In this document: positions 6,918-64,000 of the stretch, piece after piece
Position numbering within the stretch: position 1 is the first letter of the stretch
How the letters are laid out: every line of letters begins with the position of its first letter
From: a virus
UHGV virus genome: UHGV-1962423
Length of the DNA stretch: 64,000 nt
Direction: 5' to 3' (one strand)
Notes under the pieces: model-generated
Told to the model about the DNA's origin: nothing
Database searches by the model: none
What the model saw: the letters and a program-made list of their open reading frames with translations, nothing else
Position numbers and translations under genes: made by a program

Positions 6918-6958
6918 TTCAGATATATATTACTTAGGTGAGAGAATTACGTAATACT
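6918..6958 (+). promoter_or_regulatory. conserved promoter-like box TTCAGATATATATTACTTAGGTGAGA plus palindromic hairpin
   Basis: One of five near-identical AT-rich boxes in the window; hairpin core attacgtaat at 6946-6955; about 45 nt upstream of ATG 6991. Confidence 0.6.
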
Positions 6959-8004: not shown

Positions 8005-8010
8005 AAGCAA

Positions 8011-8055
8011 CCCCTAATCCCGAAAAGGATTAGGGGTACACTTTATTTATTTTCG
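8011..8055 (+). terminator. rho-independent terminator
   Basis: cccctaatcc-cgaaaa-ggattagggg followed by T-rich tract. Confidence 0.7.
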
Positions 8056-8076
8056 CTCTTAAAAGGAAATTGTGTC

Positions 8077-8232
8077 ATGAGAAATGTTAATGCAATGCTT
8101 AACCAGGCATTTGTTAACCAACAGCGTTTTCAGGAACGCTTAGCACAACTTAAAACACAACACAGACCACCACAACAAAGAGTGGTTAAGAGCAAGTTCG
8201 GCGAAATGGTTTTCGAAAGAAAATCTTTCTAA
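8077..8232 (+). CDS. small protein, tandem paralog 1 (51 aa)
   Basis: Not in track. MRNVNAMLNQAFVNQQRFQERLAQ...FGEMVFERKSF; AAGGAAA RBS; own terminator downstream. Confidence 0.5.
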   Translation: MRNVNAMLNQAFVNQQRFQERLAQLKTQHRPPQQRVVKSKFGEMVFERKSF

Positions 8233-8240
8233 TAACCGTT

Positions 8241-8265
8241 AGGGGTGTGACAGCACCCCTTTTTA
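8241..8265 (+). terminator. rho-independent terminator
   Basis: aggggtg-tgacag-cacccct followed by ttttt. Confidence 0.65.
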
Positions 8266-8382
8266 CGCTTTAACTTTTCCAAAGAGAAGTTAAAGCAGTA
8301 AGGACTGTTGGCGCAGTCCTTACTTGTCATCGCTATTACAGAAACGTGATAGCACAATTCTAATTTTTAGAGGCGATCAGAA

Positions 8383-8550
8383 ATGTTCGACAGTATTACA
8401 CAAATTTTTAACACTACCGTAAACAATCACGCTCAGCAAGCGAAGTTTAATGAACGATTAAGGGAAGTTCAACAATTAGGATTAAATAAAAGATTAAAAT
8501 CTTCCAATAATCCTCGAGTACAGATCTTCACCGAAAGGAGAAGTAACTGA
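8383..8550 (+). CDS. small protein, tandem paralog 2 (55 aa)
   Basis: Not in track. MFDSITQIFNTTVNNHAQQAKFNERLREVQQLGLNKRLKSSNNPRVQIFTERRSN; shares NKRLK...QIFTERRS tail with paralog 3. Confidence 0.55.
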   Translation: MFDSITQIFNTTVNNHAQQAKFNERLREVQQLGLNKRLKSSNNPRVQIFTERRSN

Positions 8551-8556
8551 TAAAAA

Positions 8557-8590
8557 CAAGGTGAGCTGTTGGAGCAGCTCACCTTTTACA
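8557..8590 (+). terminator. rho-independent terminator
   Basis: aaggtgagctg-ttgga-cagctcacctt followed by tta. Confidence 0.65.
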
Positions 8591-8646
8591 ACGCCATTAC
8601 GTTTCCGTAATGGATTTCTTTAATCACCCTACAAAGAGGGCTTACC

Positions 8647-8820
8647 ATGAACAATGGTTACTACTTTACTGACAAAATGCTTGCAGAACAATATGCAGCA
8701 AAAACCAATTTACAGCAACGTATCTACGAGTATAGTCAACTCGGTGCGAATAAACGATTAAAACCATCAACCAACCGTTTCACACAGATAATCACTGAAA
8801 AAAGGAGTGAACGCTACTAA
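8647..8820 (+). CDS. small protein, tandem paralog 3 (57 aa)
   Basis: Not in track. MNNGYYFTDKMLAEQYAAKTNLQQRIYEYSQLGANKRLKPSTNRFTQIITEKRSERY; AGAGGG RBS; hairpin gggggtg...caccccc downstream. Confidence 0.55.
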   Translation: MNNGYYFTDKMLAEQYAAKTNLQQRIYEYSQLGANKRLKPSTNRFTQIITEKRSERY

Positions 8821-8955
8821 CTAATAAAAGGGGGTGTGCTACCACCCCCTACTTAGTTCAGCAGTTGTCTTTCGTTCATAAATATTAGATGTCTTGTTTT
8901 TTTTTGCTTTTCGGGACGCATAAGGGGTCGTAGGGGGAGCCGAAGCTCCCCAGAC

Positions 8956-10518
8956 TCAAAAGAGTTCGTCACCCATACCGCCTGTAAAGACGTTAATCGA
9001 CGATGCAGTCACTGTTTCTTCTTTATCGCAATCCCATGGCAGAATGCCAACTTCACGGAAAGGTATTACTGTATAATGGTAAGCTTCTTTAGTATCGATA
9101 ATTGTACGGTGTTTACCACGTTGTACTTCTAAGTAACTATGCCCATTGACAACACGTTTGTTAAAATACATCTCACCGTCAGCTTCGTTATCCAAGCTGG
9201 AGCAGTTATCGTAAAGACCGCGACCTGGTAAGTTCTTACAGAAACTTGCTGGGTCTAACGCTTTTAATTTTTTGCCTTCTGGTGAGATTTGGTGTGGCGC
9301 TAACAAGAAACCACGGTTACGTACTACCTGGATGTTTCGAGCGATACGATAAATTTCTTTAATGTCGCTACCGGCAATCCCGTTACCGTGACCTGCTTTA
9401 CTGATAGTCCCGAAATAGTCTCCGCGAATCCCAGCTACATGATAACCTCGACGCTTTAAGTCCAGTATTAAGTCGTTTAAGTAATGTATTTTAAAATCTG
9501 AGTTTGTGTGTTTCTGAAAGATGTACTCCCAACCGTTAGCCCGCATTTTACTACAGAGGTAGTCCGACATTTTTGTGTTGTGTAAAGCTTTCTCTTCGTC
9601 GGTAGCGTTTTCAGAAGCAACCATAACCGGTGCTTCACCTTCAAAATGACCGTAGAGCGCTTGGTACGCATACGCCAAATTAACGTCCAGTTCGTTCTCT
9701 AAACTTAAATCGAGAATAACCGGCTGTAAATCCCCTTTAACGTTTTCCATTACCTTTTCAGGCGTATTGAATACCGGAATACTGATAGACAACAACAGAC
9801 TAAAAAGCGATTTACAGTTAAAGGGCAGTGCAGGCATTAGCCAAAGTTCTTCAGTAATCCCTTTGTTACAACCCAACATCTGGTTAATGGCTTTCCATCC
9901 GGTACGTAAACCATTACCCGCTGCTTTCTTACTGATTGAGTCGAACACATGTACGAACGGTGCACGGTTATCCGTAATAAGTTCACCTACGAGTGAGGGA
10001 ATCTTATTATGAGAGCGTTCACTGAACGTAGAGAGACTATCTCTGAGGTCGTTGAGCGCTGTTTGTAAATCAACGCGCGTTTCGGTTCCGTTCAGTGCGC
10101 CTAACGTACGACCTAATTTTTGTTTCAGTTGTACGCCTTGAATAGCTTGACGTAATTGGAAGTAGTATTGTGCTACTTGACGGTTAAGATGCTCGATGCG
10201 TGCTTCTGGTTCTTCTGGAATATCATCTTCCAGGAATTTGGTAATCGTATCGTATAGAGGACGTATTTGCGTAGTGGCCAGTTTCAAACGTTTCATGACG
10301 TTTGTGTGGTCGTAAGGCATACCGCCGTCTATGATGGATGTGATGATATCCTTGATTTCGACGAGGGCGGCACGTTCGTCACCTTCCTCTACGTAATCAG
10401 GAAGCTTAGCCTCTAACAGCACTTTTCTTATGACCTCGTGATCCTTCTCAGGGTCGGTCAGCAGACTTTCAGTGTATAGTGTGGCTAATGCGGTTATCAA
10501 CATCATTTTGTTATTCAT
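8956..10518 (-). CDS. hypothetical protein (520 aa)
   Basis: Long minus-strand ORF, one of only two reverse genes; AAGGATG RBS on minus strand; start lies 13 bp from the divergent + gene start. Confidence 0.75.
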   Translation of the reverse strand: MNNKMMLITALATLYTESLLTDPEKDHEVIRKVLLEAKLPDYVEEGDERAALVEIKDIITSIIDGGMPYDHTNVMKRLKLATTQIRPLYDTITKFLEDDIPEEPEARIEHLNRQVAQYYFQLRQAIQGVQLKQKLGRTLGALNGTETRVDLQTALNDLRDSLSTFSERSHNKIPSLVGELITDNRAPFVHVFDSISKKAAGNGLRTGWKAINQMLGCNKGITEELWLMPALPFNCKSLFSLLLSISIPVFNTPEKVMENVKGDLQPVILDLSLENELDVNLAYAYQALYGHFEGEAPVMVASENATDEEKALHNTKMSDYLCSKMRANGWEYIFQKHTNSDFKIHYLNDLILDLKRRGYHVAGIRGDYFGTISKAGHGNGIAGSDIKEIYRIARNIQVVRNRGFLLAPHQISPEGKKLKALDPASFCKNLPGRGLYDNCSSLDNEADGEMYFNKRVVNGHSYLEVQRGKHRTIIDTKEAYHYTVIPFREVGILPWDCDKEETVTASSINVFTGGMGDELF

Positions 10519-10531
10519 GGAGCATCCTTAA

Positions 10532-11056
10532 ATGCAAATTCGTTTTAGTCCACCGTGGGAAGTTCAGCCTAACATAGATAAAGGCGCTGCCGTTAAAAGT
10601 GTAGAATTGCTCCAGGCAGGGTTCTTTAACTGGTTATATGACTGTCCGAATGGTTTCAGTTCTATCATCTTACCTGAAGTAAGTCGTTCTGCTATTTATA
10701 AAGCGTTAATGGCTCCGCCTGTACTTCCAGGTAAATATTATGATCAGGTGTTACGTCTGGTCGAATCAGGCGAAAAGGTTTCCCTTGACGATTTATATGG
10801 GGAAACAATTCCTTGTCGCTTACGCTGGGTCTTTACCCAACGTGGTGATACGATTGTGGCGTCATTTGCAGAAGCGAAGTCCGGTTCGGGTTTTTCTTCG
10901 GGTGAAGACCACGCTGCGAAAAAGATGTTCTGCGCAGAACTTTTTAAATATATGCGTACCAAGACTCGCGTCGTGGATGACTGCTTCAGTACCTCAACGC
11001 AGTTTGCCGCTAACGAAGTGCTGACGCAATTATACGCATGTCATTTATCTCATTAA
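10532..11056 (+). CDS. hypothetical protein (174 aa)
   Basis: ATG 10532 with GGAG 9 nt upstream; immediately precedes the highly expressed 761-aa gene. Confidence 0.7.
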   Translation: MQIRFSPPWEVQPNIDKGAAVKSVELLQAGFFNWLYDCPNGFSSIILPEVSRSAIYKALMAPPVLPGKYYDQVLRLVESGEKVSLDDLYGETIPCRLRWVFTQRGDTIVASFAEAKSGSGFSSGEDHAAKKMFCAELFKYMRTKTRVVDDCFSTSTQFAANEVLTQLYACHLSH

Positions 11057-11068
11057 GGTATTAAACAA

Positions 11069-13354
11069 ATGAAAGATACCCGAATCTCTAATTTAGAGAA
11101 ACTCGTAGAAGCCGGTACTAGTCTGGCCCAAAACGTCATCGGCAACAACACCGCCAGCGAAATGTGGAAGACGATTGTTGCAGGCGAGTCCGTACGTAGC
11201 AACGCAAAAGTATTTGGCGCTCTGCGTGACGAAGCATCACAGCACTATGCCAACGCTTTTGGCGGCAAGAAAATGTCTCATGCTGCGACCGTCGCTTCCG
11301 CAATGATTCTGGGCGTAGCTAACCACGGTAAAGACCTGCAAGAACGTGTTGCCCAGGAATACGCTAAGCCGGAATTCCACACCAAGTATAACCTGGATAT
11401 TGGTATCCCTGGTGCGCAAGGTGGTGATTGGGGTCGTGAGCGTATGGTTGTTGCTCAGGAATACTACAGCAACAAAGACTACGACAAAAACTTGGGCCTG
11501 ACCTGGACCCTGAACGTACGTGCTCTGGAAACTCAGTCCAAGTTTGCTGAAACACTGTTCCCGACCATTACCGTTGACACCAACGATGTTGGTATTACCG
11601 TACGTACTAAAGTGACTACCGTTTCTCGCGGTATCATGAACGCGCTGCTGAGCAAAGACGTCGTTGAAGATCATCGTCGTCCGCTGCACAACGCACTGAC
11701 TGACCACACCGTTCTCCAGGACGAAGCGATCAACATCGTTCCTTACGTAATGGAAACCGGTGAAAACCAGGAATACTTCGTAAGCGAAGATCTGGTTCCG
11801 AACGAAAAAGTTCGCCTGGGTCGTGTACCTCCGTATCCGACTAACTACCTGAGCTTTGCAAACGACACGCTGAACCTGTTCCAGCTGTCTGCGCATCCGG
11901 GTATCGTTCAGGAAGGTTACGATGAAACTGATGAAATCGCACCGGGTTGTGCTCTGGGCAGCCTGCTGATTTCTGTACGTAAACCGGCCGAAGAAGCGAA
12001 AGCGGGTAAATTCATCAAACTGCACGTTCGTGACATGCAGTTCGCAACCTTCCAGCGTCCTGCTGAAGGTGACGGCCGTGAACTGGTTCTGCAATTCCGT
12101 CGTACCGCGTTCTCTCTGAATGCGAAAACCACTGACTGGAAAGGCGACGCTATTCCGGCACTGCAAGCACTGGGCCAGAACTCCTACACCCTGCGCTACG
12201 TTATCACCATCACCATGTCCCTGTTCACCAGCGGCCAGTTCGGTGGTAAAGTAGACATTTCCGGCCACAAACTGGAAATCGAAGGTCTGTACGATGCAAC
12301 TGGTAACAAAGTTGATACCAAGTCTGGTACCGGCAAAGTTATCCTGGATGGCCTGAAACTCGAACTGATGGGCTGGCGCTTCGATGGTACTCGTACCAAC
12401 GAAAACCGTCGTACCCAGGGTCTGCTGCTTGACCCAATTTGGGAACAGGAAAACTACAAACTGCAATACGGTTCTCCGATTCTGACCAAGTCTCCGGTTG
12501 GTGTTGAATACGACGACACTGAACGTCTGGATGACCTGATCTCTGCGGTGAACATCCGTAACGAACAGCTGGCTATTACTCAGACGCTGTCTTACACTGA
12601 AGCAGTACGTAACGCAGCCGCTGCGATGATCACTCCGTGGGACAAACCGGCTATCCGTGGTCTGGGCCGTCACTGGGTTGCTCCGTGGTTCAAAGAGTCT
12701 GACTACAAAGTCGATGAAGTTGTTCAGTCTCTGGATACCAAAGAAGCGCTGATCAACGCTCGTCAGGGTCTGTTGCAGCGTATCGGTAGCCAGGTAACTC
12801 AGGCTATCCAGGATTCTCGTTTCATTCCTGCACTGCGCCTGCTGACCGCTGATCCGGACATTCTTCCGAAAGTTATTATCGCAACTGACGAACCGACTGC
12901 ATCCATGCTGCTGCTGGTTCAGGGCGACCAACGTCTGCTGGGCGACCGTTATGAATACGAAGTCGTTACCACCAACGATGACCGCTGGCGTATCTACAAC
13001 GCAGCTGACGATTCCTGGACTCGTCGTCTGCAATGGTTCCTGAAAGTTCCGACTGCGGACGATGGTTCCTACTGCGTACTGAACTGGGGTAACCACTTCT
13101 GGTCTCCGATCATGGTTACCAACATCAACATTCAGCGTAACGGTTCTACTTCTAAAGAACTGGCTGTACAGCCGCGTAACGCGCATATCTGCCACTGCCC
13201 GATCACTGGTCTGATTTGGGTTAAAGGCATCACCAAACTGGTTGAAGAAAAACTGGCTTACAACGTTTCTGTAGAACAGAACGGCCAGAAACAAACCGAA
13301 GGTGGTGTAGCAGGTAACCTTGCTGTCGAAGGCAAAGCTACCGCTGGTAAATAA
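11069..13354 (+). CDS. highly expressed major virion structural protein, possibly major capsid protein (761 aa)
   Basis: Strongest codon bias in the window (CTG, CGT, GGT, AAC, GAA), strong terminator downstream. Capsid assignment is inference from size and expression signature only. Confidence 0.85.
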   Translation: MKDTRISNLEKLVEAGTSLAQNVIGNNTASEMWKTIVAGESVRSNAKVFGALRDEASQHYANAFGGKKMSHAATVASAMILGVANHGKDLQERVAQEYAKPEFHTKYNLDIGIPGAQGGDWGRERMVVAQEYYSNKDYDKNLGLTWTLNVRALETQSKFAETLFPTITVDTNDVGITVRTKVTTVSRGIMNALLSKDVVEDHRRPLHNALTDHTVLQDEAINIVPYVMETGENQEYFVSEDLVPNEKVRLGRVPPYPTNYLSFANDTLNLFQLSAHPGIVQEGYDETDEIAPGCALGSLLISVRKPAEEAKAGKFIKLHVRDMQFATFQRPAEGDGRELVLQFRRTAFSLNAKTTDWKGDAIPALQALGQNSYTLRYVITITMSLFTSGQFGGKVDISGHKLEIEGLYDATGNKVDTKSGTGKVILDGLKLELMGWRFDGTRTNENRRTQGLLLDPIWEQENYKLQYGSPILTKSPVGVEYDDTERLDDLISAVNIRNEQLAITQTLSYTEAVRNAAAAMITPWDKPAIRGLGRHWVAPWFKESDYKVDEVVQSLDTKEALINARQGLLQRIGSQVTQAIQDSRFIPALRLLTADPDILPKVIIATDEPTASMLLLVQGDQRLLGDRYEYEVVTTNDDRWRIYNAADDSWTRRLQWFLKVPTADDGSYCVLNWGNHFWSPIMVTNINIQRNGSTSKELAVQPRNAHICHCPITGLIWVKGITKLVEEKLAYNVSVEQNGQKQTEGGVAGNLAVEGKATAGK

Positions 13355-13410: not shown

Positions 13411-13535
13411 TCTATTATTTTTCGGATAGATATTATTAAAGAGAGACTGTCAGTTGGTTTAAAGGAGAGTTTATGGAAAAATTACAGTTAAAACTAAAGA
13501 TATGTACCATTATTAAAACTTAATCTGGCCCTTAC

Positions 13536-14556: not shown

Positions 14557-16332
14557 GTGTTTAAAGATGCAATCAGAAAGCTTAAAGAGGATGGCAAAAT
14601 AGTACCCTTTAACCGAGCGATTGCGGAAGGTGTCGGTTATACCCAGGCCAAAGATGGTATACACGAACGTGTTCAGATTATCTTGAAACGTGAGCTGGAT
14701 TATCATCCTGTTGATAATCCGCGTGTTCCTGAAGGGCTGGCTGTATTAGGTGTACGGTTAATGTCGCCGTTTGAAACGTTCATCTATAAGCTGTCTCGTT
14801 CTGAGAGCAGCAGAATGGATAGACGCCGTGGTGTGATGTCCATTGCGAACACCGATGCGTATATGGTCATGTCAACATTCCGTATTCCAGGAGATTCTCG
14901 ACCGATCTCAAGACCGATTAACTTACCCTTTATCCGTCGTGGTGGTTTAATGAACTATTACGGTACGACGTATCACGTTGCGCCGGTTATTCACCAGCCA
15001 GGTATCTGTCGCGAACACGGTGGGGTATTTGTTAACTTTGACTTTAAACGTAAAGCCTCGTTGAAATTCTGTAAGCAACCTGTCCGTGTGTTAGTCAACG
15101 GTAAAAAAGAGGAGCTATTCTTACCAGGAACCAAAAACCTGTTCAAAGCGAAGAACGCAACACATCCCGATACTGACGAGAAACCGTTAATGTATTGGTT
15201 GTTCGGACGTTACGGATTTAAAGAAGCGATTAAACGCTATACTGGTGTTGACGTAGAAATTTATCCATCGTTTAAGATCCCAGAACTCGATCTCAACGAG
15301 AAAGTTGTAATCAGTTCCGGTGAATCGAAATATAACCGTTCGATAATGTACGCGGTTGTCGTACCCGCAGAAGCATTGCCGAACGTGGATAAAGTCGGTT
15401 GGGATCAAAACGAGCATTTATTGCTGGCTGCAATTGCTGCGTTCTTCAAAGCTGCTCACTACTATTGCAGTAAACAATCTATTAAGAACGGTAACGTCAC
15501 ACCGCTGCCGCCGCTGTTTACCGCAATTAACGAGTTAGCGATGGAAGACGATATTGCTAATCTGAACTCTGCTCCGATTTGGCGTGAGATTCTGGGAAGA
15601 AGTATCGTAGGACTGAAACCTTCCGATATTGAGTTAGCGCACAGTATGGCGAAACACTATACTGAATGTGATCGCTATGTTAACTCAACGTTCCGTGCAG
15701 AACTGAAGATGACCGATCCCGACATTCCAGACGATATGGATATGTTTGATTTCTTCTGGTATGCAACGAAACTGATGGTACGTACCCGTTTGACCAAACA
15801 GGGCGACATTCCGTCGATGTACGGAAAACGTTTAACCGTAACTGACTACTTACTGTTAGGTGACCGTGGGTTTACACCAACGGTAGCGGCTATTCGTTTC
15901 CAGCTGGGACAAACGGAGAACCGTTCGCCGGAATCCTGCGCGAATATGATTCGTAGCGCACTCAATAAAGAAATTGTCACGAGTCTGGTACTGCGTAATA
16001 TCACCGGTAATGGCGGTGTAAGTTATTTTAACGCATCAACAGAATCCATGGTGTTAGGAGTATCCACACACGCGATCAGTCAAACTGAAACGGAATCTAA
16101 ACGCAACAGCAAGGGCGGTAAAACGGTTAACCTTAACGACCGTACGAAACACGCTTCTGCATCGCATCTGGAGTGTGGTAACGTTTATTATATTCCGAAA
16201 TCATCCCCGTTCAAATGGGGTGTCCTTAACCCGTATATGAAAACTAACCGTCAGTTAGTGATGGTTCGTAATCCAAAACTTGACGAGTTAATTCAAGCAA
16301 CTGAAGAAGACATTGCGAAGATTGGCCGTTAA
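14557..16332 (+). CDS. hypothetical protein (591 aa), GTG start
   Basis: GTG at 14557 with AAGGAG 6 nt upstream. Confidence 0.8.
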   Translation: MFKDAIRKLKEDGKIVPFNRAIAEGVGYTQAKDGIHERVQIILKRELDYHPVDNPRVPEGLAVLGVRLMSPFETFIYKLSRSESSRMDRRRGVMSIANTDAYMVMSTFRIPGDSRPISRPINLPFIRRGGLMNYYGTTYHVAPVIHQPGICREHGGVFVNFDFKRKASLKFCKQPVRVLVNGKKEELFLPGTKNLFKAKNATHPDTDEKPLMYWLFGRYGFKEAIKRYTGVDVEIYPSFKIPELDLNEKVVISSGESKYNRSIMYAVVVPAEALPNVDKVGWDQNEHLLLAAIAAFFKAAHYYCSKQSIKNGNVTPLPPLFTAINELAMEDDIANLNSAPIWREILGRSIVGLKPSDIELAHSMAKHYTECDRYVNSTFRAELKMTDPDIPDDMDMFDFFWYATKLMVRTRLTKQGDIPSMYGKRLTVTDYLLLGDRGFTPTVAAIRFQLGQTENRSPESCANMIRSALNKEIVTSLVLRNITGNGGVSYFNASTESMVLGVSTHAISQTETESKRNSKGGKTVNLNDRTKHASASHLECGNVYYIPKSSPFKWGVLNPYMKTNRQLVMVRNPKLDELIQATEEDIAKIGR

Positions 16333-17982: not shown

Positions 17983-18026
17983 GTTTGGATTGGGGGTGGA
18001 AACATCCCCATTTTTAAGGAGTGCGT

Positions 18027-18285: not shown

Positions 18286-18320
18286 AGGAGAGCCGAAGCT
18301 CTCCTCCTTTATTTTTATTC
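18286..18320 (+). terminator. rho-independent terminator
   Basis: aggagagc-cgaa-gctctcct followed by cctttatttttatt. Confidence 0.7.
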
Positions 18321-18669: not shown

Positions 18670-18723
18670 AAAAGCTACTCCGACCCCAGAAGGGTCGGAG
18701 TAGGCTCGAATTATTTTTTTTTT
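18664..18723. terminator. bidirectional terminator between convergent genes
   Basis: ctactccgaccc-caga-agggtcggagtag flanked by A-run upstream and T-run downstream. Confidence 0.7.
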
Positions 18724-18728
18724 GCTAT

Positions 18729-21446
18729 TTAGAGAGTTTCATCGCTGTTGTCATCTGCACCGGTATCCGTCTCGTCCGTGCCTTCAGTTGAAACGTCTTC
18801 TTCCGTTGCCGTATCGGTTTCCGTCGTTTCATCGTCAGTCATGTCCAAGTCTTCATCACCGCCCAGATCGTCACCACCTAAGTCCTCATCGCCTCCTAAG
18901 CCGCCGTCATCTTCAGTGCCGCCGCCAAAGTCGCTGCTACCGCCGAAGTTATTGGCGTCTTCAGGATTCAGATCAGCCGCTTTTGCTAACGTTTCAACTT
19001 TCCCTGTTACACGTTTTGCCAACTGAATCAGTGTCTTAGATGCAGACGCAATTTCGTCAGAGATCATCTTAACGTTTTCACCGCGTTTCTCTTCATCGTA
19101 AATCAGGTCGAACATATCGTTCTCAATACCCTGACTACGTAACCAGTGGCGCGCGTAGAAGGTCTTAACCATCGTCTTGAGGTCATCAGGTGACATTTCA
19201 ATACCTTCGTTCTGAAGCATATTAGCAATGTCATCCGTGACCACCAGATCTGCAAGTTTCTCGATAAATTCATAGCGTTTATCGAAGAGATCAGCTTGAG
19301 ATGCTGTTGCAGAAGTATCAGGTGGTGGCAAGGTGACCTTCATACCGTTGATAAACTTCGCCATATACTCTGACGTTTGTTTTGTCATCTCTTCGCTAGA
19401 TACATTCGGATTCTGCTCACGGATATACTCAACGATAATACGGATGAGTTCTGCTTGCAGTTTCGGTGAAGCTTGCAGACTGTTTGTAACGTAGCGCGTA
19501 AGCGGGGTTGAGAGGATTTCCTGTTTCTTCACAATCTGTTGAGTAACCAACAGCGATTTAGAATAAATCTGAGAAGCAAACTCCAGGTTCTCCGGGGTAA
19601 GTACAAGGTCAGGATCAACACACGCGATGTGACATGTACGGCGTAACAGGTTCTCGTCAATTTGTTGATCAGGAACTTTATACTCCGGCGTGGTATCAGA
19701 CACAGACACTTTGTGGCTGGCGTAGTAATCGTTACCCGTTACGTTAAAGGCAATCCCCGCGTTAGCTCCCATTGCCCAAGCATCGTTAATATCCCCCCAC
19801 ATCGGTAAACGACGGTTGTAGGAGTTAAGGATATCTGATTTGGCTTGGTCGACAGTTTTTTGACCGTTTGCATCGTCCGGTGACAGCTCAATGTCGTACT
19901 GCATGTGACGTGCCGAGTTTAGTACAGATGAGTTCATTGTCGCAAACAGCAGTGCCATCCTGACGGTGGAGATGATAAAAGAGCGTTCAGTGATAGAAAC
20001 CCCGATACCATCTTCGTTAAAATCCGTTGCAAAATAGCATAGGTTATTAACCGGAATGTAAACCACTTGAGTATGACGTTTTGCGAGATGACGCGCTAAC
20101 AGAATACGGCCGAATGTTTCGGTAATATTCATGCTGATTTCTGCGCCACCTAGTGCCTGACTTAATGCGCGAGCAAATTCGTTTTCAGCGATTTCACCGC
20201 AACGTGTACTTAAACGGTTGGCGATTTCCGGGGTAATGCGAGAAGTGTTCCCTAAGCCCAGATTAGAACGGTTAATGATGCTGTCCGTCATCCCGTCGTT
20301 ATTCAGGTAGTTCATAAAGTTCGCATCGCCGTACAGCGAGGAGCGAGCATTGATGAAGTTACCCATGTCATCTACGATGGTCAGATAACCAATAGGGTTA
20401 CGAACGTCATCGCCAATTACCAGTGGCAGCGTTGACTCTGCGGGCAGTAAACGTTCGATGTATTCGATTTTGTTATTCTCATCCATTGAGATAATAGGAA
20501 TATCACCGTACGTTTGTGTTTTCGGTGTTGACTTATACGCCTCGTTTAAATCACCCAAGTTAATGAACCCTTTTTCAGCAGCGTCACGCTGACGGTCATC
20601 GAAAGATTGGTTAGGGTCGAACGGACTGCCACCGTTTGGTGTAGACGGCTTTTCATATGCGGCTTGCTCTAATTGCCCGTACAAACCCGTACGTGCGTTC
20701 TCATGCGCGATACGACGATACAAATCCGGCAGCATGGTAATGCGCGGGTTATCGGTAATCGTGATTTCCATCTGGAATTTATCCGAGAACATCGAATCGT
20801 GCTTACCGAAATCGATTTTCAACGTCTGAGGACCAGTAACGGCTCCGTGTAAACGGTTGAGAATTGATTCCACACCAACTCGCTGCCCTTCTTTCGGCGC
20901 ATTAATAGGCCCGAGAATACCAAGCTGTTGTTCGAAGAACGCCGTTTGGGAACGACGAATAGATTCAGTAGCGACCTTTGTATTCAGACCGAATAATTGG
21001 TCGAAGCCGGTATCCGAGATTATCATCACTGGACTTGCGCCTTTGGTTTTTAACGCATCGTAAATCCACTGATATAATTTCTTAGGTAGCTGACGAATGT
21101 TATCGTGATAATCACGGGTCGGTGTCAGTAGCGCGTTACGCAGATCAATGGGGATGTCCGCGAAGTTGTCGTAAATCAACGTCGTGTTGATTAAGTCTTT
21201 TGTTGATAACAGGCTCGAAGTTGCAATAGTAACGATTGTTTCGAGTTCAGGTAACGCATCAAAGATACGTTCCGCATTTTTGATAGTACGAATACGTGAA
21301 CTCGCAATTGCCGTGAGTTCTTGACGTGTTGGCGTAGAACCACCCTCGCTACGCGTACCGCGTTGTTGCTGAGGTGCTGGGCCCGTAGTTTTACGAAGAA
21401 TTGCAGCTACGGCGGGGTCGCCCGTTAATTTACTAATATCGTCCAT
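18729..21446 (-). CDS. large hypothetical protein with Gly/Asp-rich acidic C-terminal tail, possibly virion-associated (905 aa)
   Basis: Long minus-strand ORF; GGAG RBS on minus strand; C-terminal ~75 residues are GGDEDLGGDDLGGDEDL...TDETDT low complexity. Portal or structural role is speculation. Confidence 0.8.
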   Translation of the reverse strand: MDDISKLTGDPAVAAILRKTTGPAPQQQRGTRSEGGSTPTRQELTAIASSRIRTIKNAERIFDALPELETIVTIATSSLLSTKDLINTTLIYDNFADIPIDLRNALLTPTRDYHDNIRQLPKKLYQWIYDALKTKGASPVMIISDTGFDQLFGLNTKVATESIRRSQTAFFEQQLGILGPINAPKEGQRVGVESILNRLHGAVTGPQTLKIDFGKHDSMFSDKFQMEITITDNPRITMLPDLYRRIAHENARTGLYGQLEQAAYEKPSTPNGGSPFDPNQSFDDRQRDAAEKGFINLGDLNEAYKSTPKTQTYGDIPIISMDENNKIEYIERLLPAESTLPLVIGDDVRNPIGYLTIVDDMGNFINARSSLYGDANFMNYLNNDGMTDSIINRSNLGLGNTSRITPEIANRLSTRCGEIAENEFARALSQALGGAEISMNITETFGRILLARHLAKRHTQVVYIPVNNLCYFATDFNEDGIGVSITERSFIISTVRMALLFATMNSSVLNSARHMQYDIELSPDDANGQKTVDQAKSDILNSYNRRLPMWGDINDAWAMGANAGIAFNVTGNDYYASHKVSVSDTTPEYKVPDQQIDENLLRRTCHIACVDPDLVLTPENLEFASQIYSKSLLVTQQIVKKQEILSTPLTRYVTNSLQASPKLQAELIRIIVEYIREQNPNVSSEEMTKQTSEYMAKFINGMKVTLPPPDTSATASQADLFDKRYEFIEKLADLVVTDDIANMLQNEGIEMSPDDLKTMVKTFYARHWLRSQGIENDMFDLIYDEEKRGENVKMISDEIASASKTLIQLAKRVTGKVETLAKAADLNPEDANNFGGSSDFGGGTEDDGGLGGDEDLGGDDLGGDEDLDMTDDETTETDTATEEDVSTEGTDETDTGADDNSDETL

Positions 21447-21457
21447 TGGGGTCTCCG

Positions 21458-23641
21458 ATGCAGAGATTTAACATATTTCGTGAACAGAACATCGCGTTGG
21501 CGAAATCACTGATTATTAAATCAGAATCAATCGCACAACAGATGAATCTGGCAATAACCGAGAACGGCGGTTTCGTTTCCGATAACCGAAGTACGTGGCG
21601 ATACTACCTGCATTTAGCAGGACAACGTCACGAATGGGATAAGCCCATTTACATAACGTCGCTCGACACGCAAGAGCAGATAGAATTAACGACAGCCAAC
21701 CTGTCCCGTCATAAAAAGACCTCAAACGTATTTCGTTCGAACGGTGAGTACATTGAGGAGCTGATCAGAACGTATCCTGACTACGCGATTTATATCCGAG
21801 GTGTGTTTAATCCGGTGGATATAAACTACGCCATCCGTGTGGCTGATTGTTCTATTCTCTATTACGACAGTTCATTAGTGGAGTCGCAAGAGACGTCACT
21901 GATGTCGAGATTGGAAGACAGAATAAGGGCAGCTCACGTTCGCTATATGTCAGAAGGGTGGAAAGTTCACAACGATGCGTTCGTGTTAGCATTCTACTGT
22001 ATTCTGTATCCGCAGCTACCCGGCATTATCGGCTATATCCGTTCTTCTTTACAGCATACCACGGAAACACACTCGTTTTACGTGACAGAGTTCTTAGCAT
22101 CACACCAAGAACTTCACGAGTTTATGCCGTATCTGACCCAGAAACAGAAATTCATTCTTTATCGGAACATTCGTTACTGGGAACGTAACTCGGGGAAAGA
22201 GGAGATTTTCGACTGGCAGATTGATGCATTGCTGACAGGTTGGGGGATGCCTGCGGTTGGGTATAATGTTGCACAACAGATACACGAACCGAAGGATGAT
22301 GATGACTCCACGTTAACACCGTTACCGATCGGTTATCAGCAATCGCTTAACTATACGGAAAAGGATTCTGGTCGAGACCTTGACATTGTAACGACGACAG
22401 ACATTATCCAGAAGGAAGTCGCGTTAGCGTACAATAACCCGGCGTACGAACCGGAGTATCAGGAAGACTTAGATACCCGTTTAAGTTTAACGCAATACCC
22501 TAACCTGAAAACCAAACTCATTGAAGTTACAGCAGTCGACCCAGAAGCGATTGAGCGCTTCGAGTATCTGCATAACCTCTTTAACGAATGGGTACATCTC
22601 GTCGCGAAAGGGAAATACAACATTTACCACGAGATTCTTAACCCAACAAACGGGGATACCTTAAAGCTTAGCTCAAAAGAGTTATTGGCGCTGTTCTTAT
22701 ACGCGGCGTATAAAGGGTATTCTGACGTTGCGTTAGAAGAGATTCCTGCGTTCAACGTATTCGGGGTGTTAATCAAACGTTGGGTTTCGTTCGACGAAAT
22801 GGAACAACATTTAATCCCGAGCTGGGAAAACCGTTTCGAAGCGTTGATTAACTATTATACCGATACACACACAGAAGTCGTCGGAACGATTCTTAGTGCT
22901 GATGAACTCTACGACACGGTTAATGAAATCATTACCCAGAAACGTCGTCGTTGGCGTTATAGTCAAAACCGTCGGAAGATTCCTGACCGTGCTGCGGGCT
23001 TGATGCTGTTTAACTACCATTACCGTGATTATCGCTGCGATTTAAAACTGAACTACCGTAACTACGATGAGTTCTTTAAAACGTTCGGGTTAGATTATAC
23101 ATTGGTTTCGGCGGAGACGTGGCAAGACATTGCTATTGATGCGTTTAACACCGCGACTAACCTGGAAACCCGTGCAACGATTTCACAGTCTGAGATTCAG
23201 CGTGCAATGGTACGATTGATGACGAAGTTGTCATCCTACACCGTACATTTTGCTGCGCGAATGGGGTCAGATTCTTACGACGTTATGGACCCGCTCTGTC
23301 CCATCTTAGGGGATATCCCTATGAGTGGGGAGGGGACAATTACAATTATTGAACCCCTCTTAGGCGTACAGCAAGTTACGCGTCACCAGTATATATCCAC
23401 CGACACTGTGTTACCGGCAGCGCCTGTTATTAAAGAACTGTCGATGCCGCAGCACATCAAACTCAGGATGAACATTTACATGGGCATCCGAGTGAAAGTA
23501 ACACAGCAGGTTGTGGTGGATATTAACGAGCCGACTACCGGGGTTGTTAAAGTGAAATCTTCGCTTGACGATTGGACGTTAAACGAACAGGTGAAAATTA
23601 ACGATCTTGACGGCTTCACGCTTGACCAGCTACCTAAGTGA
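21458..23641 (+). CDS. hypothetical protein (727 aa)
   Basis: Track start TTG 21446; first ATG at 21458, 12 bp from the divergent minus-strand start. No Walker A motif seen. Confidence 0.75.
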   Translation: MQRFNIFREQNIALAKSLIIKSESIAQQMNLAITENGGFVSDNRSTWRYYLHLAGQRHEWDKPIYITSLDTQEQIELTTANLSRHKKTSNVFRSNGEYIEELIRTYPDYAIYIRGVFNPVDINYAIRVADCSILYYDSSLVESQETSLMSRLEDRIRAAHVRYMSEGWKVHNDAFVLAFYCILYPQLPGIIGYIRSSLQHTTETHSFYVTEFLASHQELHEFMPYLTQKQKFILYRNIRYWERNSGKEEIFDWQIDALLTGWGMPAVGYNVAQQIHEPKDDDDSTLTPLPIGYQQSLNYTEKDSGRDLDIVTTTDIIQKEVALAYNNPAYEPEYQEDLDTRLSLTQYPNLKTKLIEVTAVDPEAIERFEYLHNLFNEWVHLVAKGKYNIYHEILNPTNGDTLKLSSKELLALFLYAAYKGYSDVALEEIPAFNVFGVLIKRWVSFDEMEQHLIPSWENRFEALINYYTDTHTEVVGTILSADELYDTVNEIITQKRRRWRYSQNRRKIPDRAAGLMLFNYHYRDYRCDLKLNYRNYDEFFKTFGLDYTLVSAETWQDIAIDAFNTATNLETRATISQSEIQRAMVRLMTKLSSYTVHFAARMGSDSYDVMDPLCPILGDIPMSGEGTITIIEPLLGVQQVTRHQYISTDTVLPAAPVIKELSMPQHIKLRMNIYMGIRVKVTQQVVVDINEPTTGVVKVKSSLDDWTLNEQVKINDLDGFTLDQLPK

Positions 23642-23648
23642 GAAAACC

Positions 23649-24176
23649 ATGGCATATCGCGTCGACTTAACGAAAACTCCGAAACAAATTCTGGTAGATC
23701 GTATTAACTACGTTTTCGGGGTATCCTATACCACTGACAACATCGATTTTAACGATAAAGGTGTGCAACCACTGACGAAAGACGAAGCCCGTCGTTATGG
23801 ACTGGAATCGAAAGTGGCCGCTGACTTTAAAAACGGTGTTGCGGGGAACCAGGAATTCATCTTAACCCGTGTTGACCTGGCAGCGTTCTTAGCTGACGAA
23901 CCGGTTACGGTACCGAAAGGCGAAGTAACCAGCAGCCAAGAACTGGCAGACTATATCGTTGCTCAGACCGGTATTGATTTGACCAAAGACGACATTATGA
24001 TCGAGCCTATCAGTGAGGAACTCGATTCTTATGATGTTCGCTTAGTCCCGAATCACTTATCTTTTAAAGGAACGATTCCGGTCGTATTTACTGACCCCAC
24101 ACCACGTACGTTGGCGTCTCTCGTGACGAAACTTGCGCTGGACGGGTTCCGCCCTGGAGAATTAATCAATGTCTAA
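23649..24176 (+). CDS. hypothetical protein (175 aa)
   Basis: ATG 23649 follows upstream TGA; track ORF extends upstream into the previous gene. Confidence 0.65.
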   Translation: MAYRVDLTKTPKQILVDRINYVFGVSYTTDNIDFNDKGVQPLTKDEARRYGLESKVAADFKNGVAGNQEFILTRVDLAAFLADEPVTVPKGEVTSSQELADYIVAQTGIDLTKDDIMIEPISEELDSYDVRLVPNHLSFKGTIPVVFTDPTPRTLASLVTKLALDGFRPGELINV

Positions 24177-26284: not shown

Positions 26285-26325
26285 CAACCTCTACCTTCGG
26301 GTAGAGGTTTTCTTCTTTTTATTTT
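26285..26325 (+). terminator. rho-independent terminator
   Basis: cctctacc-ttcg-ggtagagg followed by ttttcttctttttatttt. Confidence 0.75.
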
Positions 26326-33795: not shown

Positions 33796-33835
33796 TCAGA
33801 TATATATTACCTTAGTGAGATTACACAGTAATCTC
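33795..33835 (+). promoter_or_regulatory. conserved promoter-like box CTCAGATATATATTACCTTAGTGAGA plus hairpin
   Basis: Same box as at 6918, 53683 and 58071; hairpin gagattac-acag-gtaatctc; about 50 nt upstream of ATG 33870. Confidence 0.6.
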
Positions 33836-49799: not shown

Positions 49800-49809
49800 G
49801 GGGGGGGGG
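49800..49809. repeat. G10 homopolymer tract immediately upstream of start codon 49812
   Basis: Ten consecutive G directly read in sequence, 2 nt before the ATG; preceded by hairpin gcgtagggg...cccctacgc at 49763-49788. Confidence 0.9.
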
Positions 49810-49811
49810 TA

Positions 49812-50315
49812 ATGGCGGTTAACTCGGGTTGGGTCGGTTCTTCGGCTAAGAGCGAAACGGGCGAACAGTGGATGAGCGCTGCGGGTGCCAAATTGGGATT
49901 GGGTAAACCTTTTATGATGAGTCAAATGGTGGGACGATCTATGGGCTGTAAAATTTCAACTGCTGCATATAGTGATTCTTTAGGTAAGAAATGGGGTGCT
50001 GTGGGATCAAGTTGGCCATTAACTCAGAAAAATCAGGGAACCATTCAAAACGCGGGTAACTGCGGGGTGGGAACTTTAGTAGGTATAGAGTTACAATTAA
50101 CGACGGTAGTTGCCAACGCAACGCCTACTCTAGCGGTCTATTTACAAGGCGGCAGGGCCTCTAACATCACTGCAAATCTAGGCGGTAACACTTGTGCGCT
50201 GACCTATCAGCAGGTTATTAATGGCCAACATTATTACTGGACCAATAACATTAGTGCCGCGTTCCAAAACGTGATGAAATCGACCGGTACACTAAGAGAT
50301 TTCAAAATTAGTTAA
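49812..50315 (+). CDS. hypothetical protein downstream of tail fibre, paralog 2 (167 aa)
   Basis: Paralog of 49213 gene; start codon directly after the G10 tract. Confidence 0.65.
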   Translation: MAVNSGWVGSSAKSETGEQWMSAAGAKLGLGKPFMMSQMVGRSMGCKISTAAYSDSLGKKWGAVGSSWPLTQKNQGTIQNAGNCGVGTLVGIELQLTTVVANATPTLAVYLQGGRASNITANLGGNTCALTYQQVINGQHYYWTNNISAAFQNVMKSTGTLRDFKIS

Positions 50316-50352: not shown

Positions 50353-50362
50353 GGGGGGGGGG
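50353..50362. repeat. second G10 homopolymer tract in intergenic region
   Basis: Ten consecutive G, 55 nt upstream of GTG 50418. Confidence 0.9.
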
Positions 50363-53683: not shown

Positions 53684-53728
53684 TCAGATATATATTACCT
53701 AGAGGAGAGTGAAATTTACATTCACTCC
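53683..53728 (+). promoter_or_regulatory. conserved promoter-like box CTCAGATATATATTACCTAGAGGAGAG plus hairpin
   Basis: Box plus hairpin gagtgaa-atttaca-ttcactc; about 30 nt upstream of ATG 53757. Confidence 0.6.
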
Positions 53729-58070: not shown

Positions 58071-58112
58071 TTCAGATATATATTACCTAGGTGAGAGTTC
58101 AGTTACTCTCAC
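58071..58112 (+). promoter_or_regulatory. conserved promoter-like box TTCAGATATATATTACCTAGGTGAGAG plus hairpin
   Basis: Hairpin gtgagagt-tcagtt-actctcac; about 30 nt upstream of ATG 58143. Confidence 0.6.
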
Positions 58113-63229: not shown

Positions 63230-63304
63230 TTCCAAAGCGCGGAAGAAGGGGCGGCCGGTACGTCCCTTCTTCCTGTGCATTGCTTATAAAGGAGTGTCAC
63301 AGCT

Positions 63305-64000
63305 ATGGCAAAGACCATCATCACCGCCGCGCTGACCGGCGCGGTCACCCCCGCGGGCTACAAGATCCCCGAGACGCCCCAGCAGATCGCCAACGAGGCT
63401 TACGACGCCTGGAAGCTGGGCGCCGCCGTGGTACACCTGCACATGCGGGCCGACGACGGCCTGGGTGCCATGGACAAGGAGAAATTCCGGGAGACCATCC
63501 GGCTTATCCGCAGCCACCAGGACTGTGATGTCATTATCAACTGCACCTCCTCCGGCGCTTCTGCCGAGCATCCCGCCACGGATGAGGAGCGGATGGCCCA
63601 TCACCGGGAGCTGGAGGGCATCGAGATGGGTTCCTATGATGCCGGTACCTTCAACTGGATGCCCGGCGGCGTGTTCGTCAACTCCCCCCAGTTCCTCGAG
63701 AAGCTGGGCGATCTTTACATGGAGAAGGGCATCAAGCCGGAGCTGGAGATCTTTGACGCTGGCATGCTGGGCGTGGCCAGCTACTTCGTGAAGAAGGGCC
63801 ACCTGTCCACCCCCTGCCACTACCAGTTCTGCCTGGGCGTGCTGGGCGGCATGCCCGCCACGGTGGAGAACCTGCTCTACCTGGTGCAGCACATCCCCGC
63901 CGGTTCCACCTGGTCGGCCTTCGGCGTGGGCAAGGGCCCCCTGCCCATCCTGTTCGCCTCCCTGGCCCTGGGCGGCCACATCCGCGTGGGCATGGAGGAC
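63305..64000 (+). CDS. kce: 3-keto-5-aminohexanoate cleavage enzyme-like protein (BKACE/DUF849), 3'-truncated at window edge
   Basis: Not in track because no stop in window. AAAGGAG RBS then MAKTIITAALTGAVTP..., HLHMRADDG, GGHIRVGMED; GC-rich third codon positions; frame open to the end of the window. Confidence 0.7.
   Translation, partial: MAKTIITAALTGAVTPAGYKIPETPQQIANEAYDAWKLGAAVVHLHMRADDGLGAMDKEKFRETIRLIRSHQDCDVIINCTSSGASAEHPATDEERMAHHRELEGIEMGSYDAGTFNWMPGGVFVNSPQFLEKLGDLYMEKGIKPELEIFDAGMLGVASYFVKKGHLSTPCHYQFCLGVLGGMPATVENLLYLVQHIPAGSTWSAFGVGKGPLPILFASLALGGHIRVGMED

Follow-up and report, generated by a model that had tools for sequence, protein, structure and literature searches.

A head-to-head portal/wedge gene pair in an SPN3US-like jumbo phage, probably compacted around promoters embedded in the opposing genes

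The stretch of DNA analysed here, 64,000 nucleotides (nt) of the virus genome UHGV-1962423 (referred to, at its full length, as the window), belongs to a phiKZ/SPN3US-like jumbo phage and contains two divergent virion-protein genes whose start codons lie almost back to back (Table 1). The minus-strand gene encodes a portal protein of 905 amino acids (aa); it matches the solved phiKZ gp129 chain (PDB 9xpe_M, PHIKZ129; E=1.5e-41) and its homologue in Proteus phage 7 is annotated as 'portal protein'. The plus-strand gene encodes a baseplate wedge protein of 727 aa that matches PDB 9xqs_C (PHIKZ128; E=6.4e-82), and it heads a plus-strand block with further virion-protein genes, for example a phrog_2935 family match at 23607-24176. 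The top DNA matches of the window are phiEaH2 (Erwinia) and Salmonella SPN3US-like phages, at ~74% identity, and one IMG/VR contig encodes a wedge protein 99% identical to that of the window. In the 2026 structural atlas of phiKZ, gp128 is the baseplate wedge protein, present once per heterotrimer with two gp87, which amounts to 6 copies per virion, one per wedge heterotrimer (PMC13250141). The portal is present in 12 copies per virion (PMC5694885; phiKZ structure PMC13250141) and, in SPN3US, carries a long N-terminal propeptide that is removed by cleavage (PMC5694885). In a transposon study gp128 sustained no insertions, and the portal gp129 was listed among the apparently essential genes (PMC12676376). 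A strong hairpin resembling an intrinsic terminator follows the portal stop codon and, judging from this layout, would make the portal gene a single-gene transcription unit.

According to the window sequence and its list of open reading frames (ORFs), the portal gene starts at the CAT at 21444-21446 and the wedge gene at the ATG at 21458-21460. The sequence-only reading, a first annotation made from the letters alone, had placed these starts at 21446 (-) and 21458 (+), 12 base pairs (bp) apart, and this is exact: counted between their first bases, the start codons are separated by 12 nt, which leaves 11 nt of untranslated spacer (21447-21457). On the plus strand the junction reads ...ATCGTC CAT TGGGGTCTCCG ATG CAGAGA.... 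The Shine-Dalgarno sequence of the wedge gene is the plus-strand GGGG at 21448-21451, 6 nt before the ATG, and that of the portal gene is the minus-strand GGAGA, the complement of 21452-21456, 5 nt before the ATG; both start codons are thus served at normal spacing. The ORF list stretches the wedge frame upstream to a TTG at 21446. This codon has no Shine-Dalgarno sequence and is not conserved, as Wellington-like genomes read CATCGGG at this place.

Both ATGs, together with a GTCTCC core that represents the portal Shine-Dalgarno sequence on the opposite strand, are invariant in junction alignments of 8 and of 14 related genomes, although nucleotide identity among these genomes is only 54-89%. 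In 16/16 SPN3US-like loci, the portal ATG has a GGAG-type Shine-Dalgarno sequence ahead of it. Protein similarity starts at residue 1 for both the portal and the wedge, with PHROG profiles aligning from residues 1-2. The tight junction might still be an annotation artefact, one or both real starts lying further downstream of a conventional intergenic region, since ORF-based starts can err in general and the deposited portal start of PhiPA3 (NC_028999, 2310-2563) is 254 bp from its divergent neighbour. However, the PhiPA3 portal start was itself probably mis-called, too far downstream, because tblastn places residue 1 of the phiKZ portal on an ATG that has a Shine-Dalgarno sequence and is only ~44 bp away from the start of the wedge gene. 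An artefact is also opposed by the invariant ATGs and Shine-Dalgarno sequences of the 14 genomes, by the similarity from the first residues in both directions and by the detection in SPN3US, by mass spectrometry, of peptides from the N-terminal propeptide region of the portal (PMC5694885); we consider it exceedingly improbable. As the pair and its tight spacer are conserved in relatives, the portal and wedge start codons are genuine and a promoter-sized spacer does not exist. Other true start codons that would separate the genes by such a spacer, envisaged by the sequence-only reading, are ruled out by these conserved starts, each with its own Shine-Dalgarno sequence.

The arrangement extends well beyond this phage. 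Among viral contigs fetched from IMG/VR with a wedge-protein profile, a portal homologue lies divergently and immediately upstream of the wedge gene in 47/47. With the most probable starts, the 16 SPN3US-like loci have spacers of 11-15 bp, and the other clades spacers of about 27-53 bp. Depositors of seven related phages chose equivalent starts: the resulting spacer is 11 bp in three of them (phiEaH2, Proteus phage 7, Asesino), 12 bp in one (Wellington) and 15 bp in three (pEa_SNUABM_8, Phobos, EarlPhillipIV); elsewhere, the deposited annotations give 27 bp for Goslar, 32 for Special G, 35 for phiKZ, 46 for LucasX and 71 for Bacillus phage AgentSmith. The divergent pair was present in every annotated relative checked, with spacers of 11 to 71 bp apart from the PhiPA3 annotation, and the divergent orientation is therefore kept across the phiKZ-like family. 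The 47 loci and the annotated relatives argue that the pair is ancestral to this family and reaches its maximal compaction in the SPN3US-like clade.

A similar head-to-head junction had been pointed out at 10518/10532, and it is real: a DnaB-like helicase gene and a 174-aa ORF, located ahead of the major head protein gene (11069-13354), are separated by 13 nt, and this spacer is 11-14 bp in 16 related loci. Both junctions are thus held at 11-15 bp across at least five genera despite the divergence of the DNA, and this conservation is not due to chance, in line with the suggestion that the layout is non-accidental. The accompanying statement that the window holds only two reverse-strand genes needs a minor correction, as a third minus-strand ORF exists at 63284-63979. 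It encodes 231 aa from a GTG start at the window edge and, having no PHROG match, is perhaps not a gene; if it is one, the portal and helicase genes are not alone on the reverse strand.

Table 1. Features of the two head-to-head junctions in the window and candidate promoter cores around them.
Feature	Position	Strand	Remarks
DnaB-like helicase gene	8956..10518	-	phrog_3213, E=7.5e-199
Candidate core TATG inside the helicase gene, ACTTTTCTTATGACC	10429-10432	+	16/16 genomes; 86 nt inside the helicase gene
Spacer of the first pair, 13 nt, GGAGCATCCTTAA	10519..10531	.	One Shine-Dalgarno sequence per strand: plus GGAG, minus AAGGA
174-aa ORF (phrog_8266), ahead of the major head protein gene	10532..11056	+	
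Candidate core TATG inside the 174-aa ORF	10573-10576	-	Conserved; 42 nt inside the ORF; 55-nt leader to the helicase ATG
Intrinsic-terminator-like hairpin, strong	18675..18703	-	13-bp stem, then T run; 26 nt past the portal stop codon
Portal protein gene, 905 aa, homologue of phiKZ gp129 / SPN3US gp81	18729..21446	-	phrog_3004, E=0
Candidate wedge promoter core TATG, CTTTTCATATGCGG	20656..20659	+	14/14 genomes; inside the portal gene
Portal codons 1-10; plus strand reads CCGTTAATTTACTAATATCGTCCAT / TTAATTTACTAATATCGTCCAT	21417..21446	-	Top synonymous-site conservation in the gene
Portal/wedge spacer, TGGGGTCTCCG	21447..21457	.	Two back-to-back ribosome-binding sites, one per strand, and nothing else
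Baseplate wedge protein gene, 727 aa, homologue of phiKZ gp128	21458..23641	+	phrog_3222, E=1.8e-281
Proximal TATG	21472..21475	-	4/14 genomes; 26-nt leader to the portal ATG
Candidate portal promoter core TATG, context GGTCTTTTTATGACGG (21720-21705)	21713-21710	-	14/14 genomes

An 11-nt spacer that holds only two ribosome-binding sites is too small for any promoter. On the left, transcripts arriving on the plus strand face terminator-like hairpins at 17991-18010 and 18286-18305 and a strong bidirectional one at 18675-18707, and the portal gene fills the DNA from the latter to the spacer; on the right, the wedge gene and further plus-strand genes leave no more room. With such a spacer and with terminators upstream, it follows from the layout that, if the mRNAs have leaders at all, each promoter has to be embedded in the gene on the opposite strand; transcripts that start inside the divergent neighbours will carry mutually antisense 5' leaders. 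Several conventional solutions were considered and rejected. A classical bidirectional sigma-70 promoter region cannot be accommodated, as 11 nt do not hold -35 and -10 elements for both genes. Sigma-70-like matches around the portal/wedge junction number 8, compared to 11.5 expected from shuffled sequences, and the first junction likewise shows no excess; sigma-70 promoters were thus discarded at either junction, and independence from the host polymerase is expected for these phages. An early promoter was discarded for either junction because the early-promoter-like motif of the window, CAGATATATATTACYTAGGTGAGA, has four clear sites, none of them near, which indicates that the pair is not early. 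These four sites, all intergenic on the plus strand (6920-6943, 33797-33820, 53685-53708 and 58073-58096; 0 expected in shuffles), are probably early promoters for the virion RNA polymerase, and weaker variants of the motif occur near 13425 and 38835.

Promoters embedded in a divergent neighbour have a precedent in phiKZ. ONT-cappable-seq mapped the late promoter P070 (AAATTTTATGA) with a start at 130258 on the portal strand (10.1101/2023.10.13.562163 supplement). As gp128 is annotated with a start codon at 130328 and gp129 with an ATG at 130364, the portal transcript begins 70 nt inside gp128 and has a 106-nt leader. The phiKZ portal is thus driven by a late-type promoter (10.1101/2023.10.13.562163), and P070 gives rise to a portal-only unit, TU100, that ends at terminator T060 (10.1101/2023.10.13.562163 supplement). 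In the same data set, P062 starts 147 nt inside the divergent helicase gene (10.1101/2023.10.13.562163 supplement and annotation), and the divergent transcripts from P072 and P073 (gp130/gp131) overlap by 9 nt (10.1101/2023.10.13.562163 supplement). Middle and late genes of phiKZ-like phages are transcribed by their own non-virion RNA polymerase, and the phiKZ late promoter core read by this enzyme is TATG, with the start at the G (PMC4666361; review PMC7598289). A core of four bases can be written into coding sequence by codon choice.

The window resembles the phiKZ gp128/gp129 locus with its P070/TU100 unit (PMC10914365) in that homologous genes lie head-to-head, and the terminator-like hairpin behind its portal gene is placed like the intrinsic terminator that ends the phiKZ portal unit. 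The phiKZ portal promoter is a TATG inside the wedge gene, which makes the leader antisense to the 5' end of the latter, and the wedge gene of the window likewise contains a conserved antisense TATG, a predicted promoter. The two loci differ in the spacer, 35 bp in phiKZ and 11 bp in the window, and in the position of the start, which was measured at gp128 codon 24 in phiKZ and is predicted at codon 85 in the window, with a leader of 264 nt; the positions are not homologous. The equivalent of the P070 position was rejected as a homologous promoter site, since the corresponding codons of the window read ATTATTAAA and lack a TATG.

Three independent observations indicate that TATG acts as a signal in this phage too: its depletion, an apparently shared transcription machinery and its conservation at synonymous sites. 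Firstly, under a maximal-order Markov model, CATA occurs 60 times on the plus strand of the window where 128.9 are expected (z=-6.1) and TATG 174 times where 263.8 are expected (z=-5.5). They are the second and third most depleted plus-strand 4-mers, after GATC, and the most depleted of the non-palindromic ones. CATA is rarer than TATG and nearly all genes lie on the plus strand, so depletion is stronger on the antisense strand. In the loci sampled from phiKZ, Goslar, PhiPA3, SPN3US, Phobos and Wellington, TATG and CATA likewise belong to the 4-mers with the strongest depletion, and this pattern fits selection against spurious late-promoter cores. The 4-mers GATC (128 observed, 268 expected) and CTAG (52 and 109) are strongly avoided in the window as well. 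Intergenic DNA is not enriched in plus-strand TATG overall, as it holds 17 of the 174 sites in 8.1% of the sequence; 12 of these 17 fall 20-60 nt ahead of a start codon.

Secondly, the window encodes a homologue of phiKZ gp123, a subunit of the non-virion polymerase (14557-16332, E=2e-21; phrog_2943 'polymerase'), the one such subunit in the window, the other four being located outside it, and its early-promoter-like motif CAGATATATATTACYTAGGTGAGA closely matches mapped phiKZ early promoters (...AAGATATATATTAC...). Given this homologue and the near-identical early motif, promoter specificity appears conserved between the phage of the window and phiKZ.

Thirdly, codon alignments were made for the portal and wedge genes (14 genomes) and for the helicase gene and the 174-aa ORF (16 genomes). 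The four junction genes contain 12 antisense TATGs (CATA in the sense direction), 5 of which are invariant in all 14-16 genomes. As the invariant share over all 4-mers is 1.9%, 5/12 corresponds to a binomial probability of 1.5e-6, and the excess of invariant CATA sites (5 observed, 0.22 expected) is by far the largest of any 4-mer. Conservation of TATG sites is bimodal, the motif being present either in all genomes or in no more than 5, and invariant antisense sites are kept by non-preferred codons (Ile ATA at two sites, His CAT at wedge His85). Seven conserved sites share a T-rich context of the TTnTTATGA type that resembles phiKZ late promoters (ACTTTTCTTATGACC, ATCTTATTATGAG, TTTATCTATGTT, AAATATTATGAT, GATTTATATGGG, GTCTTTTTATGACG and CTTTTCATATGCG). 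The likeness to these promoters (PMC4666361) comprises the TATG core, the T/A-rich upstream context and an A or G after the G; the function of the phiKZ promoters was measured, whereas that of the window sites is deduced solely from conservation and depletion.

At the portal/wedge junction, the minus-strand TATG at 21710-21713 is the best candidate for the portal promoter. Within the first 600 nt of the wedge alignment it is the sole antisense TATG present in at least 5 of the 14 genomes, and it is the sole conserved one anywhere in the wedge gene. It arises from wedge His85, encoded by CAT in 14/14 genomes, although CAC is preferred over CAT for histidine (171:101) and each of the 9 further conserved His columns contains both codons. 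The 10-codon wedge window that contains it ranks 2/73 for synonymous identity. A start at G 21710 would give a 264-nt leader antisense to wedge codons 1-84. That portal transcription begins at this TATG specifically is predicted with moderate confidence. The proximal minus-strand TATG, where wedge Ile6 is the rare ATA in 9/14 genomes, was rejected as the portal promoter; it is lineage-restricted and at most a secondary candidate.

For the wedge gene, the candidate lies deep inside the portal gene, which contains only 2 plus-strand TATGs in total, and it is the sole conserved one upstream of the wedge. Both synonymous sites of the portal GCA-TAT at this position are invariant, and the motif outlasts the replacement of Ala by Ser (GCA to TCA) that occurred in the Derbicusvirus group. 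Between 20659 and the wedge start codon there is no further plus-strand TATG, and no plus-strand terminator-like site was found between 20659 and 21458. A start at G 20659 would imply a 799-nt leader, and the prediction that the TATG at 20656-20659 serves the wedge gene is tentative and, as it stands, rather doubtful. The same portal-internal site forms a palindrome, CATATG (20654-20659), that also presents a portal-sense TATG in 11/14 genomes and could start an internal portal-sense transcript, reminiscent of phiKZ P071 inside gp129.

Combined, these results suggest that the portal/wedge layout is probably a compacted form of an ancient, conserved head-to-head pair with embedded mini-promoters, and not a switch. 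Since a 4-base core can be encoded by codon choice, intergenic DNA could have been deleted down to the two ribosome-binding sites. The portal mRNA would start at the minus-strand TATG 21713-21710 in wedge codon 85 and end at the hairpin 18703-18675; the wedge promoter would be the plus-strand TATG 20656-20659 in the portal gene or an unrecognised proximal signal in portal codons 1-10.

Several points weigh against this interpretation. TATG by itself is insufficient as a promoter in phiKZ, and the phiKZ mapping reported no start for gp128 itself (10.1101/2023.10.13.562163). The predicted leaders are long (264 and especially 799 nt), as the phiKZ leader has 106 nt and those predicted for the first junction have 55-100 nt. 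The statistics of the portal/wedge junction alone are moderate, with one invariant site per gene, and the strongest codon evidence belongs to the helicase/174-aa ORF junction. The idea of an antisense TATG in the wedge gene that is universal across clades had to be abandoned, as many clades, including PhiPA3 and Goslar, have none in the first 450 nt of the gene. The portal GCA-TAT-GAA encodes A-Y-E, which resembles an A-x-E protease site, so that its conservation is in part conservation of the protein. Our literature search found no mapped start site or time course in SPN3US-like phages, and the starts given here are predictions. The A-Y-E tripeptide occupies residues 263-265 of the portal, a part of the protein in which the SPN3US portal has its inferred propeptide cleavage site (AQE-254); the A-x-E type is that of prohead-protease sites.

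Transcription of one or both genes might instead start within the spacer or beside it, directed by short elements located in the first codons of the neighbour, with leaders of only 0-20 nt; the distant TATGs would serve other transcripts. Synonymous codon identity in portal codons 1-10 is 0.71, compared to a gene mean of 0.486 (standard deviation 0.085), and ranks 1/94 windows. Within it, the conserved TTAATTTACTAATAT of portal codons 3-8 resembles the phiKZ middle motif AAanTTAC and a local TTAC-N16-GTGA motif, which is enriched at exactly 16-nt spacing with 8 plus-strand sites, three of them right after terminators before genes; the TTAC at 21430-21433 would put the equivalent start near 21450. 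For the portal gene, the lineage-specific TATG 21475-21472 would provide the 26-nt leader. However, the sequence of portal codons 1-10, with its TTTAC element, is not conserved in Wellington-like genomes or in the locus L030 despite an equally tight spacer, a start near 21450 would strip the conserved Shine-Dalgarno sequence from the mRNA, and TATG 21475-21472 is found in 4/14 genomes only. Synonymous conservation of first codons is in any case expected from translation-initiation constraints alone, and in portal codons 1-10 it may reflect such a constraint or else a proximal signal of the wedge gene that overlaps these codons. TTAC-N16-GTGA was rejected as the wedge promoter because the match at the junction is partial and TTTAC is not conserved in the two lineages. 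We regard proximal or leaderless initiation as unlikely. Elsewhere in the window, a T-rich TTACAA followed after 14 nt by GTGA occurs at 26324, 33045 and 34976 (+), right after terminator hairpins and 40-60 nt before gene starts, and TTAC-N16-GTGA is a candidate middle-type promoter like phiKZ AAanTTAC.

The helicase/174-aa ORF pair would be built in the same way as the portal/wedge pair, with promoters embedded in the neighbours, and it presents the clearer picture of the two. The plus-strand TATG inside the helicase gene predicts a start at G 10432 and a 100-nt leader to the 174-aa ORF; a second one, with its G at 10011, is also present in 16/16 genomes. With the minus-strand TATG inside the 174-aa ORF at 10573, the candidate at 10432 forms a face-to-face pair 142 bp apart. 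A rare codon is involved at both sites: ATA, which accounts for 8.4% of Ile codons, encodes helicase Ile30 in 16/16 genomes and Ile15 of the 174-aa ORF in 16/16. In phiKZ (P062, P063 = P119L), a DnaB-like helicase gene is likewise divergent from an operon of a small ORF (gp119) and a head protein, and the start of P062 (117303) inside the helicase gene parallels the one predicted at 10432. The phiKZ helicase/gp119 spacer differs, however, as its 211 bp contain the main late promoter P119L; with the 13 bp of the window, all promoters of the pair would be intragenic. The 174-aa ORF was rejected as a homologue of gp119, BLASTP similarity being undetectable, and is a positional counterpart only. 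It contains two sense TATGs (10739-10742 and 10796-10799, plus strand) that are present in 16/16 genomes upstream of the head-protein ATG at 11069; they parallel the phiKZ start sites P064-P067 inside gp119, which yield head-protein-only transcripts.

The recurrence of the layout had led the sequence-only reading to propose mutually exclusive expression. This is not supported for the portal and the wedge: both are required for one virion and must be made in the same infected cell. In a broader form, facing promoters with antisense leaders over each other's ribosome-binding sites would, through polymerase collisions or RNA duplexes, make expression of portal and wedge, and likewise of helicase and head operon, exclusive or reciprocally damped, and such antagonism could set the timing or the low copy numbers of portal and wedge. 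The geometry lends itself to this. With start codons 12 nt apart, each leader with its Shine-Dalgarno sequence would be complementary to the initiation region of the other gene, the inferred promoters are face to face at distances of 142 bp (10432/10573) up to 1052 bp (20659/21710), both proteins are of low copy number in the virion, and the head-to-head arrangement occurs twice and is conserved. In coliphage 186, the face-to-face promoters pR and pL are subject to transcriptional interference and, with repressors, underlie the choice between developmental fates. The promoters of the window would also face each other if the predictions hold, whereas one virion requires the portal and the wedge together, both made late in a single cell, and a regulator is not evident. 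We found neither a repressor nor an attenuator nor a conserved RNA structure, and Rfam and tRNA scans of the window returned nothing. The helicase/head pair has another function and probably another timing, and a switch logic common to both pairs is not apparent. Although the phiKZ portal transcript overlaps gp128, it is readily detected as a late unit. A regulatory switch or mutual antagonism is therefore held to be quite improbable. We give an equally low probability to facing modules of non-virion RNA polymerase promoters in which collisions or duplexes would balance low-copy proteins without a dedicated factor, or would set the timing of helicase versus head expression. Some mutual interference between the inferred facing promoters is physically plausible, and might help to keep two low-copy proteins scarce, but we rate it as a minority possibility; a switch is not needed to account for the layout.

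Two other regions of the window were noticed during this work. The 951-bp gap between convergent gene ends at 8005-8955 contains three plus-strand ORFs of 51-57 aa (8077-8232, 8383-8550 and 8647-8820), with similar-looking C-terminal stretches (…NKRLK…TE(R/K)RS) and a separate GC-rich hairpin behind each of them, which gives the appearance of small paralogous genes arrayed in tandem and terminated one by one. Two runs of ten G residues, at 49800-49809 and 50353-50362 (+), where 0.05 are expected, are intergenic and located upstream of gene starts at 49812 and 50418 (the latter ~55 nt on). Slippage-prone tracts, ribosome-binding regions of an unusual type and artefacts of assembly are possible explanations.

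Part of what is described here was already known. The tight spacing is visible in the deposited annotations of SPN3US, phiEaH2 and relatives, a supplementary table for phiKZ already documents that a late promoter can lie inside the divergent gene, and the layout, although real, is fairly ordinary genome compaction. The cross-genus conservation of both junctions, the genome-wide avoidance of TATG in this phage and its relatives, and the junction-adjacent antisense TATGs frozen by rare codons are new. Together, they provide the SPN3US-like group, which serves as a genetic model for giant phages, with its first concrete promoter predictions. They have a practical consequence for phage engineering, as synonymous recoding near the 5' end of any of the four genes (wedge, portal, helicase and 174-aa ORF) could abolish the promoter of the neighbour unnoticed, and they show how these phages can drop intergenic DNA and yet keep promoters.

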